IMG/VR virus record: IMGVR_UViG_2718217869_000002
Coordinates: 1-43,574 of that record
Reading direction: 5' to 3' (one strand)
DNA: 43,574 bases
Source: a virus
Lineage: Duplodnaviria > Heunggongvirae > Uroviricota > Caudoviricetes
Shown here: piece after piece, positions 1,778-42,263 of the stretch
How the letters are laid out: each line of letters starts with the position of its first letter
Position numbering within the stretch: the stretch's first letter is position 1
Position numbers and translations under genes: made by a program
Notes under the pieces: generated by a model
Told to the model about the DNA's origin: nothing
What the model saw: only the letters and a program-made list of their open reading frames with translations
Database searches by the model: none

Positions 1778-1978
1778 TTACCCATTGGCGCGGCTTAAGA
1801 GCTTATTTTTGAATTCACAATGGTCACGATATAACCATCTTGCTCGACCGTGGATAACTTTGGCTTTTGGCAGGTCGCCGGACTTAATCCGGTCATAGAT
1901 GAAGGTTTTACCAAAGCCAGTATCGGCCATGATGAATTTCAAATCAACCAGTGAATCAGGCTGTAGTTCGTGTTGCAT
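1778..1978 (-). CDS. torI: AlpA/TorI-family excisionase and transcriptional regulator
   Basis: 66-aa protein MQHELQPDSLVDLKFIMADTGFGKTF..., recognised as TorI (KplE1/CPS-53 excisionase) type; located next to the att core. Confidence 0.8.
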   Translation of the reverse strand: MQHELQPDSLVDLKFIMADTGFGKTFIYDRIKSGDLPKAKVIHGRARWLYRDHCEFKNKLLSRANG

Positions 1979-7285: not shown

Positions 7286-7524
7286 AGGATGCTCCTTCTG
7301 TTTGATTGCATAACGAAAACGCCTCGAGTGAAGCGTTATTGGTATGCATATAAAAAGGCCCTCACACTGGAGGGCAAAGAAGATTTCCAATAATCAGAAC
7401 AAGTCGGCTCCTGTTTGGTTACGAGCGACATTGCTCCGTGTATTCACTCGTTGGAATGAATACACAGTGCTGTGTTTATTCTGTTGTTTATGCCAAAAAT
7501 AAAGGCCGACTATGCGGCCATCAC

Positions 7525-7721: not shown

Positions 7722-8027
7722 TCAAATAAGTGGTTTGCTGCCTAATTTCATTTTCTGGCGACCAACACATGTCACACCCATTTCACTGCGCGGCTTGCTG
7801 TACCATGTGCGCTGATTCTTGCGCTCAATACGTTGCAGGTTGCTTTCAATCTGTTCGTGGTATTCAGCCAGCACTGTAAGGTCTATCGGATTCAGTGCGC
7901 TTTCTACTCGTGATTTCGGTTTGCGATTCAGCGAGAGAATAGGGCGGTTAACTGGTTTTGCGCTTACCCCAACCAACAGGGGATTTGCTGCTTTCCATTG
8001 AGCCTGTTTCTCTGCGCGACGTTCGCG
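7722..8027 (-). pseudogene. N: Antitermination protein N, 3' portion (disrupted by IS insertion)
   Basis: Translation from ...ERRAEKQAQWKAANPLLVGVSAKPVNRPILSLNRKPKSRVESALNPIDLTVLAEYH... closely matches lambda N; reading frame upstream continues into IS terminal repeat. Confidence 0.85.
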
Positions 8028-8221
8028 TTGCGTATTTTCATGAAAGGAGATCACTCAATAACTTCCATCGAGATCGGGTAATAACATTTGAACAGATCGC
8101 TGAATAACATCGATGGAGATCACTTTTGACTCATTTTGTTATTCAGTGATCTCCATCAATGTTATTGGAACTTCACAGGTGTGTTGATCTGTATCTTTTG
8201 CCATTCCGGTAAAGGATACCT

Positions 8222-9763
8222 ATGCCAACAGTTCCAATTTCTATGAGAAAACTTAAAGAAATTCTTAGGCTTAAATACGGTGTTGGACTCAGCCATCGAC
8301 AAATTGGTCGTAGTCTTGCAATCTCCCCTTCCGTTGTATCCAGATATGCTAATCGGGCGGCTCAACTTGGCATAAAGCAGTGGCCCTTACCTACAGGATG
8401 GGATGATACAAAACTAAAACATGCGTTCCTTCAGACCCAGGTTAAGATGAAGAAGCACTCTCTGCCTGACTGGGCTACAGTACACCGGGAACTGCGTAAT
8501 AAATGCGTGACGCTGCAGCTACTCTGGGAAGAATACTGTGAGCGTAATCCAGGCGGTTTTTACAGCTATAACCATTACTGCCGGATGTACCGTGAATGGC
8601 TCAAAACCACTTCACCATCAATGCGTCAGGTACATAAAGCTGGCGAAAAACTTTTCGTTGATTACTGTGGACCTACCGTTGGCGTTACCGACCCTGAGAC
8701 CGGAGAAATAAGAACTGCTCAGGTCATCGTAGCTGTTCTCGGGGCATCAAGTTACACATGGGCAGAGGCCACCTGGTCTCAGCAGCTTGAAGACTGGGTG
8801 ATGAGTCATGTTCGCTGCTTCCAGTGGTTGGGTGGCGTTCCTGAACTTGTTGTTCCGGACAATCTGAAAAGCGCCACATCCAGGGCATGTAAGTATGATC
8901 CTGACGTTAACCCTACCTACCAGCAGATGCTTGAGCATTATAATGTCGCAGTTTTGCCTGCGCGGCCACGTAAACCGAAAGATAAAGCCAAAGCTGAAGT
9001 TGGCGTTCAGGTTGTTGAACGCTGGATCATGGCCCGAATCAGGCATGAGATCTTCTACAGCCTTGCATCGCTTAATCAGCGCATTCGGGAGTTGCTGGAA
9101 AGACTGAATAACAAAATAATGCAGAAGTTGGGTTATTCACGTGCAGAACTCTTCATCCAGCTTGATAAACCCGCACTGAAGCCTCTTCCTGAAGCCAGTT
9201 ACAGTTACACCCTGGTGAAGAAAGTCAGAGTTCATGCCGATTACCACGTGGAAATCGACAAACATTACTACTCGGTTCCATGTTCGCTGTTAGGCCAGCA
9301 ACTGGAAGCATGGATCTCCGGAGAACTGGTAAGACTCTTCAATCAGGGGCAGGAGGTTGCTGTGCACCCGCGCAAGCGTACTTATGGCTACAGTACCCGC
9401 AACGAGCACATGCCTGAAGCTCATCGACAGCATGCCACCTGGACGCCAGAGCGTCTTCTGGAATGGGCGGGGCACATAGGCAGTGAAACTCATAGTTATG
9501 TGCTTCATATACTGAACTCTCGTCCACATCCGGAACAAAGCTATCGCTTCTGCCTTGGACTCCTGAACCTTCATAAAAAATACAGTAAAGCCAGACTTAA
9601 TGCAGCATGTGCAAGAGCTCTGAAAACAAAGGTATGGCGTCTGTCAGGTATTAAATCGATCCTGGAAAAAGGTCTGGATAAACAACCTGTTCAGGATCCA
9701 AAACCAGATCTGTTATCCACGATGGAACACGAAAACGTACGCGGCAGTGAGTATTACCACTGA
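8222..9763 (+). CDS. istA: IS21-family transposase IstA
   Basis: 513 aa with N-terminal HTH and DDE integrase-core-like region; size and tandem arrangement with istB. Confidence 0.8.
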   Translation: MPTVPISMRKLKEILRLKYGVGLSHRQIGRSLAISPSVVSRYANRAAQLGIKQWPLPTGWDDTKLKHAFLQTQVKMKKHSLPDWATVHRELRNKCVTLQLLWEEYCERNPGGFYSYNHYCRMYREWLKTTSPSMRQVHKAGEKLFVDYCGPTVGVTDPETGEIRTAQVIVAVLGASSYTWAEATWSQQLEDWVMSHVRCFQWLGGVPELVVPDNLKSATSRACKYDPDVNPTYQQMLEHYNVAVLPARPRKPKDKAKAEVGVQVVERWIMARIRHEIFYSLASLNQRIRELLERLNNKIMQKLGYSRAELFIQLDKPALKPLPEASYSYTLVKKVRVHADYHVEIDKHYYSVPCSLLGQQLEAWISGELVRLFNQGQEVAVHPRKRTYGYSTRNEHMPEAHRQHATWTPERLLEWAGHIGSETHSYVLHILNSRPHPEQSYRFCLGLLNLHKKYSKARLNAACARALKTKVWRLSGIKSILEKGLDKQPVQDPKPDLLSTMEHENVRGSEYYH

Positions 9764-9774
9764 TACGGGATCCA

Positions 9775-10524
9775 ATGATGAATCATCTTTACGAACAACT
9801 GACCGCACTTAAACTCACCGGCTTCCGTGATGCGCTTAAAAAGCAACTTGCTCAACCGGGCACATACCAGGAGCTGGGCTTCGAAGAACGCCTGTCATTA
9901 CTGACAGCAGAAGAACTAACCTGCCGTGAAAACAGGAAGGCAGAGCGTCTGATCAAACATGCACGGTTCAGACTTAATGCTGAGTTATCAAAGCTGGATT
10001 ATCGTAACAATAGAGGGCTGGACAGGGCCCTCATCCGTTCACTCAGTCAGGGAAACTGGTTAACCCTGAAACAAAATATTTTACTGACCGGGGCCACCGG
10101 CAGCGGTAAAACGTTCCTGGCATGTGCACTTGGTCATAATGCCTGCCGACAGGGATACAAGGTCTACTATTATCGCCTTAAAGCGCTGATGGAACAGTGC
10201 TATCAGGGGCATGCTGATGGAAGATACAGCAAACTTTTGACCAGGCTGAATAATAGCGATCTGCTGCTTCTGGATGACTGGGGGCTGGAACCTCTCTCAT
10301 CAGAACAGCGTAGCGACCTGCTGGAAATAGTGGATCTGATGTACCAACGAGGCTCAATCATCGTAGTGAGCCAGTTGCCGGTGGAAAACTGGTACAAAAT
10401 GATCGGAGACTCCACACATGCGGATGCCATCCTAGATCGACTGGTTCATGGCAGTATCAAGATCGAACTTAAAGGAGAATCAATGCGGAAAATACAATCT
10501 CCGTTGACCGAAGGAGATCAGTGA
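9775..10524 (+). CDS. istB: IS21-family helper ATPase IstB
   Basis: 249 aa with Walker A LTGATGSGKTFLA and Walker B LLLLDD motifs. Confidence 0.85.
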   Translation: MMNHLYEQLTALKLTGFRDALKKQLAQPGTYQELGFEERLSLLTAEELTCRENRKAERLIKHARFRLNAELSKLDYRNNRGLDRALIRSLSQGNWLTLKQNILLTGATGSGKTFLACALGHNACRQGYKVYYYRLKALMEQCYQGHADGRYSKLLTRLNNSDLLLLDDWGLEPLSSEQRSDLLEIVDLMYQRGSIIVVSQLPVENWYKMIGDSTHADAILDRLVHGSIKIELKGESMRKIQSPLTEGDQ

Positions 10525-10609
10525 AGGTAATTTAAAAACGGTTCTGTGAAAGTGACACGAACCGATCTCCATCGATGTTACTCACCGATCTCCTTCACGG
10601 TAATACGCA

Positions 10610-10634
10610 CGCGGCGGCGTGTTTGAGAGTCCAT
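10610..10634 (-). pseudogene. N: Antitermination protein N, 5' fragment (first 8 codons)
   Basis: Minus strand ATG GAC TCT CAA ACA CGC CGC CGC G matches lambda N start ATG GAT GCA CAA ACA CGC CGC CGC G; ends at IS boundary. Confidence 0.75.
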
Positions 10635-10675
10635 ATATCATCCTCAGATAAATGGCCCCTCAGCGGGGCCGACAG

Positions 10676-10810
10676 TTATTGGCAGGTTGCGTACTTGCTG
10701 ATGCAGGAGAAGATTTCCACGATTCGCGTCATTGTTGTTTCAGGACGCTTTGCTTCATCACGCATTGACTTCAACCAAGCCATAAAGTGTTCGTTATGTT
10801 TCATGTTCAT
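10676..10810 (-). CDS. Small ORF (44 aa) in the pL leader between nutL and N
   Basis: ATG preceded by CAGGAG at the position where lambda has the N start; unknown function. Confidence 0.3.
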   Translation of the reverse strand: MNMKHNEHFMAWLKSMRDEAKRPETTMTRIVEIFSCISKYATCQ

Positions 10811-10986
10811 CTCCTGTCAGTTAGCTTTGGTGGTGTGGTGGCTGGAGTCGAACCAGCTTCCATCGGTGCGCTGCCGATTGGGTTACGCGCATCCTGCGGT
10901 TAGTTGTCTAGAATCTTCACCGCAAAACTATTCCCTAGCTCGCCGTTGAGCTTCACCACACCCCAAAGCCTTCTGCTTTGAATGCT

Positions 10987-11019
10987 GCCCTTCTTCAGGG
11001 CTTAATTTTTAAGAGCCTC
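10987..11019 (-). promoter_or_regulatory. nutL (boxA-like plus boxB hairpin)
   Basis: Minus strand GCTCTTAAAAATTAAGCCCTGAAGAAGGGC matches lambda nutL boxA/boxB. Confidence 0.8.
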
Positions 11020-11061: not shown

Positions 11062-11129
11062 ACAAGAAAGATTGTATGTTGTAAACAAGAAATATTGTAA
11101 AAAGGGGCGTGAAAAACAAACTCCATTGT
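11062..11129. promoter_or_regulatory. OL operators (three 14-bp 434-type sites) with pL
   Basis: ACAAGAAAGATTGT (11062-11075), ACAAGAAATATTGT (11085-11098), ACAAACTCCATTGT (11116-11129): ACAA-N6-TTGT 434 operator signature. Confidence 0.75.
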
Positions 11130-11178: not shown

Positions 11179-12531
<1,353 letters not shown>

Positions 12532-12539
12532 GACATTCC

Positions 12540-12571
12540 CGCTCTTACACATCCCAGCCCTGAAAAAGGGC
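12540..12571 (+). promoter_or_regulatory. nutR (boxA CGCTCTTAC and boxB GCCCTGAAAAAGGGC)
   Basis: Exact lambda-type boxA and boxB hairpin downstream of cro. Confidence 0.85.
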
Positions 12572-15455: not shown

Positions 15456-15489
15456 CAGGCCTGCTGGTAATCGCAGGCCTTTTTATTTG
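15456..15489 (+). terminator. Intrinsic terminator downstream of helicase gene (tR2-like)
   Basis: Hairpin AGGCCTGC-loop-GCAGGCCT followed by TTTTTATTT. Confidence 0.6.
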
Positions 15490-18331: not shown

Positions 18332-18980
18332 TGGCAGCAAATACCGAAATATTTGGGTAGTTGGCGATCTGCACGGATGCTACACGAACCTGATGAAAAA
18401 ACTGGAGACGATAGGATTCGACACCAAAAAAGACCTGCTTATCTCGGTTGGCGATTTGGTTGATCGCGGTACAGAGAACGTCGAATGCCTGGAATTAATC
18501 ACATTCCCCTGGTTCAGAGCTGTACGTGGAAACCATGAGCAAATGATGATTGATGGCTTATCAGAGCGTGGAAACGTCAATCACTGGCTGCTTAATGGCG
18601 GTGGCTGGTTCTTTAATCTCGATTACGACAAAGAAATTCTGGCTAAAGCTCTTGCCCATAAAGCAGGTGAACTTCCGTTAATCATCGAACTGGTGAGCAA
18701 AGGTAAAAAATATGTCATCTGCCACGCCGATTATCCTTGTGATAAATACGAGTTTGGAAAGCCAGTTGATCATCAGCAGGTAATCTGGAACCGCGAACGA
18801 ATCAGCAACTCACAAGACGGGATCGTGAAAGAAATCAAAGGCGCGGACACGTTCATCTTTGGTCATACGCCAGCAGTGAAACCACTCAAGTTTTCCAACC
18901 AGATGTATATCGATACCGGCGCAGTGTTCTGCGGAAATCTCACATTGATTCAGGTACAGGGAGAAGGCGCGTGGGCATAA
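18309..18980 (+). CDS. ninI: Ser/Thr protein phosphatase (lambda PPase, NinI)
   Basis: 223 aa from [32 protein letters not shown] and GNHE metallophosphatase motifs. Confidence 0.9.
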
Positions 18981-19489
18981 GAGAACTAAACCTCACCAAA
19001 GAACAGCACGATTGGCTGAATGGATGGCTTGAACTGTGGGGCGCATGGGTTTATTCAGGTCGTCTGGAAAAGCGCATGAGCAGCGTAATAGCGAAGTTCA
19101 TGGAGAGCGTAGAGCCGGGAAGAATTATGACAAGGCCAATGTGTAATGATGATGATGGAATGTTGATTTCTCAGGTCGTCGATTCCGTCATGTACATTGA
19201 CAAGAAAGCCTTTGGCATCCTCCTCAGCTACTACGCTCATGGTTCATCTAAGAGAGCAATTGCATCCTACTATCACGCGACTGCAAAGCCACGCAAGATG
19301 TGTGGACGCGGTGGCGAGGGATGGAGAAAACCTTCACTGGCAACCTGTAGAAACGAAATTGACGATATCCTGAAAGCGTCATTATTTGTTTTGTACCAAC
19401 CAATGCAAAATGCTTTCAAAATGCGTAAACGTGTTGAGAAAGTTAAGCATGTTGCTGTTAAAAGCCTTGACATGCAATTAGCCATTTAG
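18971..19489 (+). CDS. Late-gene antiterminator Q (QuuD/phage 82-like family)
   Basis: 172 aa; WGAW...[10 protein letters not shown] motif shared with E. coli prophage Q-like antiterminators; position between nin genes and lysis cassette. Confidence 0.6.
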
Positions 19490-21648: not shown

Positions 21649-22170
21649 ATGAACTACCCAACCGTTGTTAACGATATAGATTTCAGAGACCTAATTTTTG
21701 TAGCAAACAACGATCCGGTTACAGATTCTTTTATGGTGGCAAAAGCATTTGGAAAGCTGCCGAAGAACGTAGTCCGTGACATTGAGCGAACCATAGAAGC
21801 TTGCCCTCCTGAGTTTGATACAAAGCTCAACTTTGAGCTTTGCTATAAAAACAATGAGTTACAGAATGGTAAGCCGCAAAAATTCTACCGTCTCCGCAAG
21901 GATGGGTTGATGCTTTTGGTTATGTCCTACACCAAAAAAGAAGCAATGCGTATCAAAATTGCTTACATCAACGCATTTAACTGGATGTACGCCATGCTTC
22001 AGGTTGGTCATCTTCAATTTGAAGAAGAGAGAAATGCCGTAATGCTGGAGTACATGAAAGAGAAGGATGTTGCCAGCATGTCAGGTCGCCTGCTAAATCG
22101 CTGGGGAAAATTAAGAAGCCTCAGCTACTGGCGAGAATTGAACGCCTTGAACAGCACGGGCAAACCGTAA
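21649..22170 (+). CDS. Rha-family phage regulatory protein
   Basis: 173 aa; N-terminal region (NNDPVTDSFMVAKAFGK...VVRDIERTIE) typical of Rha-type proteins; from memory. Confidence 0.55.
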   Translation: MNYPTVVNDIDFRDLIFVANNDPVTDSFMVAKAFGKLPKNVVRDIERTIEACPPEFDTKLNFELCYKNNELQNGKPQKFYRLRKDGLMLLVMSYTKKEAMRIKIAYINAFNWMYAMLQVGHLQFEEERNAVMLEYMKEKDVASMSGRLLNRWGKLRSLSYWRELNALNSTGKP

Positions 22171-22349
22171 TCCCCGGACTCACTAATTAACGGCAGTACA
22201 GCGAAACAACCCAAGCCAGTAAGTGGGGAAATAACACTGGCAGCCACTGAAAGATGAACCTCCTGCCTTATGGCAAAAAAAGATTCTTTGTGGTGGCGGA
22301 CTGATGGAAAGACATCCTAATCAAGCAACCACTCCACAGGGTCATAATT

Positions 22350-27221: not shown

Positions 27222-28115
27222 ATGGACCAGATGGCAGAAAACACACCAGAAGTTGAAATCGAAACCGACGCGTCAGAGCAGATTCCTGATGATGTCGAAC
27301 TGGCTGAAGAAGTCGAAACAGAAGATGGCAGTGAGTCCTCAGGCAATGATGCAGAGGAAGCTACTGAAACTGATGACGACGAATCAGAACAGGAATTCTA
27401 CTTTGGTGACGAAAAGCTGGATTCGCCAACCAGCGAAGATGGCGCAGAGCATGGACTGGTAAAACACCTGCGCAAGACGATTAAAGAGAAAGACCGCGAG
27501 CTGAAAGAGCTGATGCGCCAGTCTCAGAAACCCGTCGAGCAGCAGCCGGTAATTACTCAACCACCGCGAATGCCAAAACTGGATGATGAGGACATCGGTT
27601 TCGATGAAGAAATCTACCAGCAACGCATGGCTAAGTGGGCAGAGGATAACGGCAAGTACCAGCAACAGGAGATGGCTCGCAAGCAGAAGGAGCAGGAGCT
27701 TCAGGCTGCCTATCAAGAGCGATTATCCAAATATCAGCAACGTGTTAAGGCTCTCAAAGTTCCTGGCTATCAGGAAGCTGAGCAGGCCGTACTCGAGGAA
27801 ATCCCCATCGAGACACAAAACGCGATCTTGTTTGAGTCAGAGAAGCCGGAAATCGTTGTTCTGGCACTCGGTCGCAACGCTGAACTGCGCAAGCAACTGG
27901 CAGAAGCTACCAACCCCGTAGCAATTGGTCGTCTGCTGGAACGTATCGAATCGAAGGCCAGAATCATGCCAAAAGCAAAAACCACGGCAGCCACAACCCC
28001 GACAGTTAAGGGGAGCAACGGCGCAGTAATCAACAACCTCGACAAACTGAAAGCCAAGGCGCTGGAAACTGGTGACTGGACGCCGTATTTCGCCGCTAAA
28101 AAGGCAAAAAAATAA
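27222..28115 (+). CDS. Scaffolding protein
   Basis: 297 aa, highly acidic N-terminus and helical charged body; position between portal and coat. Confidence 0.75.
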   Translation: MDQMAENTPEVEIETDASEQIPDDVELAEEVETEDGSESSGNDAEEATETDDDESEQEFYFGDEKLDSPTSEDGAEHGLVKHLRKTIKEKDRELKELMRQSQKPVEQQPVITQPPRMPKLDDEDIGFDEEIYQQRMAKWAEDNGKYQQQEMARKQKEQELQAAYQERLSKYQQRVKALKVPGYQEAEQAVLEEIPIETQNAILFESEKPEIVVLALGRNAELRKQLAEATNPVAIGRLLERIESKARIMPKAKTTAATTPTVKGSNGAVINNLDKLKAKALETGDWTPYFAAKKAKK

Positions 28116-39566: not shown

Positions 39567-40994
39567 TCATTTACATGGATTTATTCCGTAATATATTACA
39601 ATATCATCTTTATATCTGAATATTGAGTAATATCTTGATGAAATCAATGGCTCTGATTTGATGCCACAAACCATGCGCAACATGCCGCTTTTAACAACGT
39701 TATTATAAAGTGCAACATTTTTTATGTTGTACTGTTGCATTATAGAAATTGATATCCATGGCACAGCCGGGCTATATATCTGCCTAATAAATTTGTTAGC
39801 AGACAGTATCTTCCCGGTTATCCGCGAATTATATATGTCTCCGTAAGCGTAAACATATCCCTTGAAATCAAGTTTAGATAGATCATTAGCTGCAAGTGAA
39901 ATAACAAATTCCTCATACTTTCTTTGCTCTTTTATGGCATTCGAAAATAGAAAAGAAGTAGATAAGGAGAAAAACAAAATAACAGATACGAATGCAGTGT
40001 AAGTATTTTTATTAAACGCCTTATAAAATGAATAAATGAACAATGCTATAGAAGCAGAAAGGCCAGACAATACCCTAACGTCTGTTATACCCTCCCTTAA
40101 AAGAAATGCAGGCCCAGTCATGGAAAGTAAAATTGCAACTGGGGATAAAGTAATAAATAAAATATTTACCACACCTTCATTTCTTGACTTTATGACATAC
40201 GTCAAATAACAAAATAAAAAACACGCGGCACCTAAAATAACTATAAATTCATATAACTTGCCTACCAAGCCAAAATAAAAGTATACCTTTTCTAGGGATG
40301 ACATGAAAGATTTAATAATATCGGATGGGTCGATGTATGACGCCCTTCCTGAATTCATCTTGAAAAAATAACTTATCAATATGAAGTATAATAAATATGA
40401 TGATAAAAAAACTAAAAGAGATTTTATGTTTGATATTTTTGCATATTTATAAACTGCGTTACCTGCAACTAATGTTATAAATATGTTGGCGCAAGGCTGA
40501 TACAGGCAAAGAGATGATACTAGAAGTATCACTGAAAAAACTATCGATACTTTTCTTTTTTCGTCATATATAAAAAAAGATAAAACACAAAGCGCTGTAG
40601 CCAATACCATAGTGAACGAGTCAAACTGATATGCAGCGTTCTGAATGAAAAATGGAGTTACAAAGATAGATGTCAAGAATAAAGAAAAAACGAATTTATT
40701 GTTTTCTTGAGATAATTTATCTGAAACATACCAAATTACAGCAGATGCAACTATCACGCCTGTTAGTAATGGCATAGGTGCTGTATTAGGAAGCATTTTA
40801 AAGTTCAAAGAGAATATATGCATTAGGAAATCGGAAAGAGGTCTTCCCAAAACCCCCCACCCATCAAAAGAAAACAATGATCTATCTAAGTCATCCCTGT
40901 AAAGAACATCCGCGGATATTATTGGATAGAAAAATATCGCAATTAAAAACAATGGGATGTAAAAATATTTAGAATTAAACATTCCTATTTTCAC
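39567..40994 (-). CDS. Serotype-specific O-antigen glucosyltransferase (GtrC-type polytopic membrane protein)
   Basis: 475 aa, many TM segments, very AT-rich coding sequence; third gene of gtrA-gtrB-gtr(type) cluster. Confidence 0.7.
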
Positions 40995-41904
40995 CTTTCT
41001 TTAGTATGTACTTTGGTCTTTTTTTGGTTTCTATGTATATGCGTCCAATGTATTCACCAAGGACACCAATCCCAATCAATTGAATGCCGCCAAGGAAAAG
41101 TATGGAAACCAACAGTGACGGGTATCCAGGAACACTATTACCGAAAAGAAGCTTATCTAAAATCATCCACGCGCCATAAATGAATGACAGGCTGGCGACA
41201 GCAAGTCCGATGTATGTCCACATGCGCAATGGAAAAGTTGAGAAACTGGTGATTCCTTCAAGCGCGAGATTCCACAGCTTCCAGCCATTGAACTTGCTGT
41301 CACCAGCTATGCGTTCTGCGCGAGCATACTCGACGACGTCAGTCTTTCCACCAACCCAGCTAAGTATGCCTTTCATAAACAGGTTGCGTTCAGGCATTGA
41401 TTTAATGTTCTCAACCACTTCACGCGACATAAGCCGAAAGTCTCCGACGTTTTCCTCAATCTTCGGATTGCTTATTTTATTGTGGAGCTTATAGAACCAC
41501 TCAGCCGTTTTTCGCTTCAGTCTGCCATCCGTTGAGCGGTCAGATCGTTTAGCAAGCACCATATCAGCGCCTGCCTGCCATTTTTCAATCAGTTGAGGTA
41601 TTACCTCAATCGGGTCTTGCAGGTCAACATCAATAGGAATAACAGCATCGCCTGTTGCATGGTCTAACCCTGCAAACAATGCTGGTTCTTTACCAAAGTT
41701 GCGCGTAAATGACAGCGGAACAACTAGCGGATCAGAAACAGCCAGAGCGTAAATTATTGACTCTGTAGAGTCTTTGCTGCCGTCATTTATGAAAACAATT
41801 TCCACCTCATATGGCTTCAACTCTTCGAGTTCACGTACCGTTTTATAAAAAATTGGTATCGCTTCTTCTTCATTGAAGACAGGAACTACAAGAGATATCT
41901 TCAT
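40975..41904 (-). CDS. gtrB: Bactoprenol glucosyltransferase GtrB (GT2 family)
   Basis: 309 aa; N-terminal GT2 motifs ([21 protein letters not shown]) and two C-terminal TM helices. Confidence 0.85.
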
Positions 41905-42263
41905 TTCGCATCCCTAAAGACAATGAACTTTGAATATACGAAACCGCACACCAGGCTGATGGCGGAGAAAGTGATAAGGGTTAGCATCGGGGGAAGTGCG
42001 CATCTATCAGCAGCCCATCCAACAGTTGCACTCAGTGTTCCCATGAACCCGACATATAACATGTAGCGCATCGTTGTAGTCGATGCTTTGAATGTGAATT
42101 TTGCATTCGCGAAGAAGCTAAAGCTCACAGCCACAACGAAACCTGCGAAGTTTGCAAGAGCCTGGTTTGTATGCGCTGCATAGATACAAACACCAAAAAC
42201 CACCCAGTGTATAAGTGTGTTCAGCACACCAATCGAGGTGTACTTTGCAAATAGCTTTAACAT
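41901..42263 (-). CDS. gtrA: GtrA flippase-like small membrane protein
   Basis: 120 aa, four TM helices, immediately upstream of gtrB. Confidence 0.8.

Follow-up and report, generated by a model that had tools for sequence, protein, structure and literature searches.

ISEc12 divides the antiterminator N gene of a P22/Sf6-like Escherichia coli prophage and has likely locked it in the chromosome

Main finding

We analyzed a 43,574-nt stretch of DNA (IMG/VR record IMGVR_UViG_2718217869_000002, positions 1 to 43,574; hereafter the window) carrying a prophage whose gene for the antiterminator N is divided by an insertion sequence (IS), ISEc12 of the IS21 family. The window is 100% identical to part of the E. 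coli Ecol_545 chromosome (NZ_CP018976.1, 1377010-1420583, reverse complement). Our overall reading, to which we give a probability of about 0.85, is that transposition of ISEc12 into N, a lambda-type gene in a P22/Sf6-like prophage of 434-type immunity, left no functional N and a prophage that can no longer be induced. The components of this reading differ in strength: (i) that the IS splits N is near certain; (ii) loss of N function is well supported by the altered reading frames; and (iii) a locked, non-inducible prophage is likely.

Structure of the interrupted gene

On the minus strand N begins with ATG GAC TCT CAA ACA CGC CGC CGC (10634-10611) and runs directly into TGCGTATTACC..., the end of the mobile element. 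The other end of the element, read on the same strand as ...GAAAATACGCA, stops at 8029 and is followed by ACGCG AAC GTC GCG CAG AG..., in which the N frame resumes. ISEc12 sits between codons 8 and 9, within the arginine-rich motif that binds boxB RNA, and splits the frame by 2,581 bp. The native start now yields an 18-aa peptide. The open frame of the remnant starts from GTG at 8054; its product, MISFHENTQRERRAEKQAQW..., has other residues in place of Arg6 and Arg7. An initial annotation, made from the sequence alone, had described the eight-codon start, the break within the arginine-rich motif and a residual open reading frame (ORF) starting on a GTG in the IS terminus, all of which are present. 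It had placed the beginning of the remaining part of N at 8027; the true beginning is 8023, and positions 8024-8027 belong to the target-site duplication.

That annotation had also proposed rejoining the gene in silico for comparison with lambda N. With the IS removed and 10634-10610 joined to 8023-7722, a 108-aa N is obtained that begins MDSQTRRRERRAEKQAQWKAANPLL..., matches Pfam N36 at 90.3 bits (cut-off 25) and aligns over its full length (residues 1-108) to lambda N, chain 6GOV_N of the antitermination complex structure (E 3.6e-58). The reconstructed protein combines an N-terminal arginine-rich boxB motif with full-length likeness to lambda N; the window itself has no uninterrupted, translatable N gene. 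The cognate sites are in place, as the boxB elements of nutL and nutR are both identical to those of lambda, with 0 such matches expected by chance.

RefSeq (PGAP) calls the IS-initiated remnant an intact 'antitermination protein N' (WP_073473411.1, 109 aa, 7722-8051, minus strand) and not a pseudogene. The start of this protein falls within the IS terminal repeat, and the entry is an annotation error.

The inserted element

The element was first described as an IS21-family istA/istB element of about 2.58 kb with imperfect inverted-repeat ends of about 45 bp. Its size (2,581 bp) and class were borne out: a gene for a DDE transposase with a helix-turn-helix and rve core (istA) lies directly before istB, and the products match NCBIfam NF033546 and NF038214 as well as Pfam models (Table 1). 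The element has the form 5'-TG...CA-3' (TGCGTATT...AATACGCA), with the same first 8 bases, TGCGTATT, at both ends and several internal GGAGATC repeats. The inverted repeats are indeed imperfect but extend over about 67 nt, in which 16 nt agree at 81% and, after a 1-nt offset, a further 53 nt at 72%.

Copies with 100% identity over the 2,581 bp occur in many E. coli genomes, with RefSeq products named 'ISEc12 family', and the copy dividing tssM (locus L013, duplication ACTGC) is likewise identical over this length. The tssM insertion of E. coli ST131 is reported as ISEc12 with the 5-bp duplication ACTGC (PMC10711316), and we assign the element to ISEc12 by identity to that copy together with the RefSeq product names. 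ISEc12 was matched in 1,909 of 5,426 complete E. coli genomes, at a median of 3 places per genome having any, and is an active IS21-family element common in this species.

The target-site duplication was initially given as 4 bp, CGCG at both junctions. A duplication is present, but it measures 5 bp, its two copies (CGCGG and CGCGT) agree at 4 of 5 positions, and the CGCG on the istA side does not abut the element, being set off from it by T8028. We inspected the sequence on either side of ISEc12 at 14 distinct insertion sites (the window and loci L002-L008, L011-L015 and L018). The duplication is a perfect 5 bp at 12 of these sites, 7 bp at one, and the 4-of-5 match in the window, consistent with the short duplications of IS21 elements and the 5 bp of ISEc12. 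A 4-bp CGCG duplication around a 2,582-bp IS was considered and ruled out: the 13 other copies share these ends at a length of 2,580-2,581 bp, and the duplication is 5 bp in 12 of them. Because the empty site in related strains reads CGCGG, T8028 is a change that arose at or after insertion, and the window event is best read as the usual 5-bp duplication with a single altered base.

The empty site and the spread of the insertion

The transposition event deduced initially from the junctions is supported by an existing uninterrupted allele. As a query we used the window without the IS and one copy of the duplication (2,055 bp). Two complete genomes, PRO_A-1504-6M-A_ESBL (NZ_CM136152.1) and Ec-U18, match this excised sequence at 100%, over its full length and in one piece, and both have an annotated 108-aa N at the uninterrupted locus. 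We regard this comparison as decisive for a transposition event, and the match goes well beyond coincidence. The PRO_A-1504-6M-A_ESBL prophage occupies the same site and has the same protein accessions throughout as the window prophage; outside the IS, the two sequences differ only at position 1231, in a chromosomal gene, and position 27935 (2 single-nucleotide polymorphisms, SNPs, in ~41 kb). This near-identity to a sibling with intact N directly shows that the element transposed recently into a pre-existing lysogen.

ISEc12 is multi-copy, so a repeated IS misplaced during assembly could in principle mimic such an insertion. However, identical junctions occur in two independently finished genomes and on 5 further contigs, a target duplication is present, and relatives have the exact empty site. 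An assembly artefact is scarcely credible.

The same insertion was found in 2 of the 5,426 complete genomes, Ecol_545 and strain C1, which are identical over 47 kb, chromosomal flanks included. The hybrid-ORF product occurs on 5 contigs of a large assembly collection, and the two contigs that were read are 100% identical to the window. Locus L025 was considered as a case of different gene spacing after the hybrid ORF and rejected, as its DNA is 100% identical to the window and only the gene calls differ. Also rejected, as a third carrier of the same insertion, was NZ_OZ039848.1 (H18), in which N is intact and the IS lies further downstream and is split by IS100; this ISEc12 copy is antisense to pL, in a prophage that carries rexAB. 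Horizontal spread of a still mobile prophage carrying the insertion was ruled out by the 47-kb identity of Ecol_545 and C1 and by the N-intact strain, one of whose two SNPs is chromosomal. Vertical descent is enough, because the flanks of Ecol_545 and C1 are identical and the N-intact strain is so close. The interrupted N is a rare allele inherited vertically in one narrow lineage.

The position of the insertion raises a separate question: does ISEc12 prefer the GC-rich run of arginine codons, or have insertions that silence N been selected repeatedly for taming the prophage? The ISEc12 duplications are GC-rich (75% GC), with C favored at position 2 and G at position 4; a strict target consensus was sought, and only the weak pattern nC(C/G)Gn emerged. 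The arginine-codon run satisfies this pattern, and the N site shares CGTTCGCGG with a site in a phage lysozyme gene. In strains 19AR1321 (NZ_CM127582.1, L002 5242-7822) and 19AR0253, an independent ISEc12 copy interrupts another N, of the phage-21-like type, within its arginine-rich motif (MTVVITYLADDNARNRRRARRQAQR/EQAMQ...; ...NRRRARRQAQR/EQAMQ...). It is oriented with respect to pL as in the window and has the 7-bp duplication CGTTGAG. The split copy in NZ_OZ039848.1 (L021 2986-7525) lies just downstream of a lambda-type N and one small gene. However, these cases surfaced through flanks resembling the query and form a biased sample, none of the 6 distinct sites in an unbiased sample is in N, and the target pattern is far too weak to single out this gene. 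We consider a non-random position unlikely. That ISEc12 inactivation of N is a recurrent route to tamed lambdoid prophages in E. coli, whether selected or favored by the arginine-codon run as a landing site, seems improbable. Prophage or island genes account for many of the 14 sites; the targets include lysozyme, lom, tssM, traS and a gene for virion morphogenesis, and one site lies beside a tape measure gene.

Predicted consequences for the prophage

Under our reading, ISEc12 has deprived the prophage of N. Translation from the native start would end after 18 codons inside the IS. The remnant would lack a proper start site as well as Arg6 and Arg7, and it would lie behind 2.6 kb of untranslated antisense IS RNA, from which polarity is expected. 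Because of these three features, no functional N would be made after loss of repressor. Deep mutational scanning showed that boxB binding drops strongly with nearly every substitution at Arg6, 7, 8, 10 and 11, Arg7 and Arg11 being the most sensitive (PMC12027372). Promoter prediction gave no sigma-70-like consensus site directing transcription from the IS into the remnant. Blastn detected a single lambda-type N locus on each of the Ecol_545 and C1 chromosomes, with no second one at that sensitivity.

Without N, transcripts from pL and pR would halt at terminators downstream of N and ahead of the late antiterminator gene Q. The terminator on the rightward side lies directly after the gene for a DnaB-like helicase, between the replication genes and the nin/Q region, and we take its sequence to be that of lambda tR2. 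No bypass of N of the nin type is apparent, because the nin region is complete. We predict that torI, the recombination genes and Q, and hence the late genes, are poorly expressed, so that the prophage would neither excise nor lyse the cell and would remain in the chromosome. Repressor-dependent immunity and the gtr genes would be unaffected, and the result would be a non-inducible, immune, serotype-converting element. The initial annotation had likewise proposed that N is inactive, the terminators are not passed and the prophage is locked; this is consistent with the sequence because of the boxB sites, the terminators, the distal torI and the lack of a second chromosomal lambda-type N at blastn sensitivity.

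Several points weigh against loss of inducibility. The residual ORF keeps 101 of the 108 N residues, including Arg8, Arg10, Arg11, Lys14 and Trp18 and the whole part that binds NusA and RNA polymerase, and still matches Pfam N36 at 76 bits. GGAAG stands 7 nt ahead of its GTG start, and weak activity of this ORF is conceivable if it is expressed. In vitro, high concentrations of N can dispense with boxB. Host plasmids and divergent N-type proteins, outside our search, could complement in trans. The terminators were identified by a consensus scan, so their strength is a prediction, and the sibling prophage with intact N, which may itself not be inducible, shares a frameshifted Rha gene with the window prophage. 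A prophage that is still inducible, through a partly active hybrid ORF, N supplied in trans by a resident element or terminator leakage, would nevertheless have to overcome the loss of Arg6 and Arg7, each of which is required for boxB binding (PMC12027372), the lack of a promoter-like site reading outward from the IS, the 2.6 kb of untranslated antisense RNA ahead of the remnant and the absence of another lambda-type N detectable by blastn on the chromosome. We judge continued inducibility quite improbable and retain the reading of a prophage without functional N.

Prophage context

By its virion genes the prophage classifies as a P22/Sf6-like podovirus, and it is integrated at the argW tRNA-Arg gene with an IntS/TorI module. 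This argW recombination module has been described previously (PMC3509656), and intS and torI lie at opposite ends of the prophage, as in KplE1 (PMC3509656). A three-gene operon of the gtr type for O-antigen glucosylation (39567-42263, minus strand) adjoins intS. Operators of the phage 434 type mark OL and pL (Table 1). The cI and Cro proteins are, by our recognition, also of the 434 type.

The initial remark that every other module looks intact was nearly right; the exceptions are a Rha-family regulator gene (21649-22190, plus strand), annotated as frameshifted, and a DUF551 fragment flagged by RefSeq, both of which are also found in the N-intact sibling. Because the sibling has the same Rha defect, this frameshift is older than the IS insertion. 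Between cI and the OL/pL region, a small ORF annotated as hypothetical (11179-11655, minus strand) encodes a protein with an N-terminal hydrophobic, signal-like segment. It occupies the position of lambda rexAB and is a candidate moron expressed in the lysogen.

Table 1. Coordinates of the features in the window.
Feature	Position	Strand	Remarks
ISEc12, 2,581 bp	8029-10609	+	transcribed opposite to pL and N
istA transposase, 513 aa	8222-9763	+	NCBIfam NF033546 ('IS21 family transposase') 310.5 bits (cut-off 160); Pfam rve, Mu-transpos_C_2
istB helper AAA+ ATPase, 249 aa	9775-10524	+	Pfam IstB_IS21 227.5 bits; NCBIfam NF038214 ('IS21-like helper ATPase IstB') 270 bits (cut-off 200)
Terminal inverted repeat, istA side	8029-8096	+	repeated GGAGATC motifs
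Terminal inverted repeat, istB side	10543-10609	-	
Target-site duplication, intact copy CGCGG	10610-10614	+	empty sites (NZ_CM136152.1, Ec-U18) read CGCGG
Target-site duplication, degenerate copy CGCGT	8024-8028	+	T8028 replaces G
N codons 1-8 (MDSQTRRR)	10611-10634	-	G10610 is the first base of codon 9
Rest of N, last two bases of codon 9 to stop codon	7722-8023	-	
Frame now read from N start: MDSQTRRRVRITVKEIGE, then stop inside IS end	10578-10634	-	translation
Residual ORF (MISFHENTQRERRAEK...), GTG start inside IS end	7722-8054	-	without Arg6, Arg7 of RNA-binding motif
nutL: boxA GCTCTTAAA (11016-11008) and boxB GCCCTGAAGAAGGGC (11001-10987)	10987-11016	-	
nutR boxB GCCCTGAAAAAGGGC	12557-12571	+	
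Three phage 434-type operators (ACAA-N6-TTGT) marking OL and pL	11062-11129	.	
Predicted intrinsic terminator downstream of N and DUF7167 gene, T tract	7504-7519	-	
Second terminator-like hairpin with T tract downstream of N	7358-7375	-	
Predicted strong intrinsic terminator AGGCCTGCTGGTAATCGCAGGCCT, then TTTTTATTT	15457-15480	+	8-bp stem, 6 G-C pairs
Late antiterminator Q gene	18971-19489	+	RefSeq annotation; pR transcription must pass the 15457-15480 terminator
torI-type excisionase (recombination directionality factor) gene	1778-1978	-	RefSeq annotation; distal end of pL operon
Unannotated tRNA-like RNA, 146 nt, in pL leader between nutL and N start	10824-10969	-	

A tRNA-like RNA in the N leader

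Ahead of N, the leader of the pL transcript contains an element with the parts of a tRNA: an acceptor-like stem, a D-like arm, a long extra hairpin, a 5-bp stem with a 7-nt loop, a T-arm (GCTGG-TTCGACT-CCAGC) and an ACCA end. ARAGORN at default settings found no tRNA in this element, and Rfam gave only a sub-threshold tmRNA match (10.1 bits). We aligned twenty homologues at 75-100% identity, from viral contigs and two Salmonella phages. The alignment fits a cloverleaf-like fold with an extra long arm, in which 96.6% of cells are paired and 15 of 40 pairs have compensatory changes; none of 500 shuffles was as good, and slid controls gave 33-46% pairing.

The element was detected in 175 of the 5,426 E. 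coli genomes and is unannotated in all 175. It lies just upstream of N in phage BIS08P22, as in the window, and adjoins a tRNA-Ile gene in phage Skate, while for a 75-78% variant (159 records) the one genome examined has it flanked by Q and the holin gene. A literature search combining 'tRNA-like' with 'nutL' returned nothing relevant. The element resembles a conserved, tRNA-like RNA that phages carry in strongly transcribed leaders, and may be a processing site of the RNase P/Z type or a stable tRNA-like RNA. Just before the N ribosome-binding site, the same leader has a 44-aa ORF (10676-10810, minus strand) and a 6-bp all-G-C hairpin, GGCCCCGCTGAGGGGCC (10654-10670, minus strand).

Comparison with known systems

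A literature search for an IS in the N gene of a lambdoid phage returned nothing specific, and no mention of the N gene or an antiterminator was found in a report on E. coli O157 Sakai, whose defective lambdoid prophages are riddled with ISs (PMC2669165). None of the element, the gene and the phenomenon is new in itself; what is new is this instance and the RefSeq annotation error. IS inactivation of prophage genes and ISEc12 insertions in key genes are both well documented, and no concept is changed.

In lambda, N-defective mutants such as the N7 N53 ambers show that loss of N in the presence of nutL and nutR blocks delayed-early and late expression, and the same block is expected here. Whereas the lambda cases are point mutations in lambda itself, this one is a natural 2.6-kb insertion, predicted to be polar on the whole pL operon, in a prophage with a P22-like virion, 434-type immunity and an IntS/TorI module.

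In E. coli ST131 clade C/H30, the disruption of tssM by ISEc12 (PMC10711316) offers a parallel in mechanism, with the same element, a 5-bp duplication and a single ancestral insertion that inactivates a key gene of a multi-gene machine. In that case the target is a chromosomal type VI secretion gene and the insertion is fixed in a global clone; here the target is a prophage regulator, the lineage is rare (the two complete genomes above) and the duplication has one mismatch.

With the O157 Sakai prophages and with KplE1/CPS-53, the cryptic argW prophage of K-12, the window prophage has in common decay by mobile elements. The argW site and the IntS/TorI module are as in KplE1, and this module is known from both KplE1 and HK620 (PMC2951348, PMC3509656). 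The N-intact sibling, 2 SNPs apart, is a near-isogenic natural control that makes the pair a convenient system for studying an N-less P22-like prophage, and the pair could address immunity, O-antigen modification and host killing on induction. KplE1 has been reduced to a 10-kb remnant, whereas the prophage in the window is at the very first step of decay, a clean and datable one: a single IS in the master early regulator, with the remaining ~41 kb nearly identical to the uninterrupted sibling.

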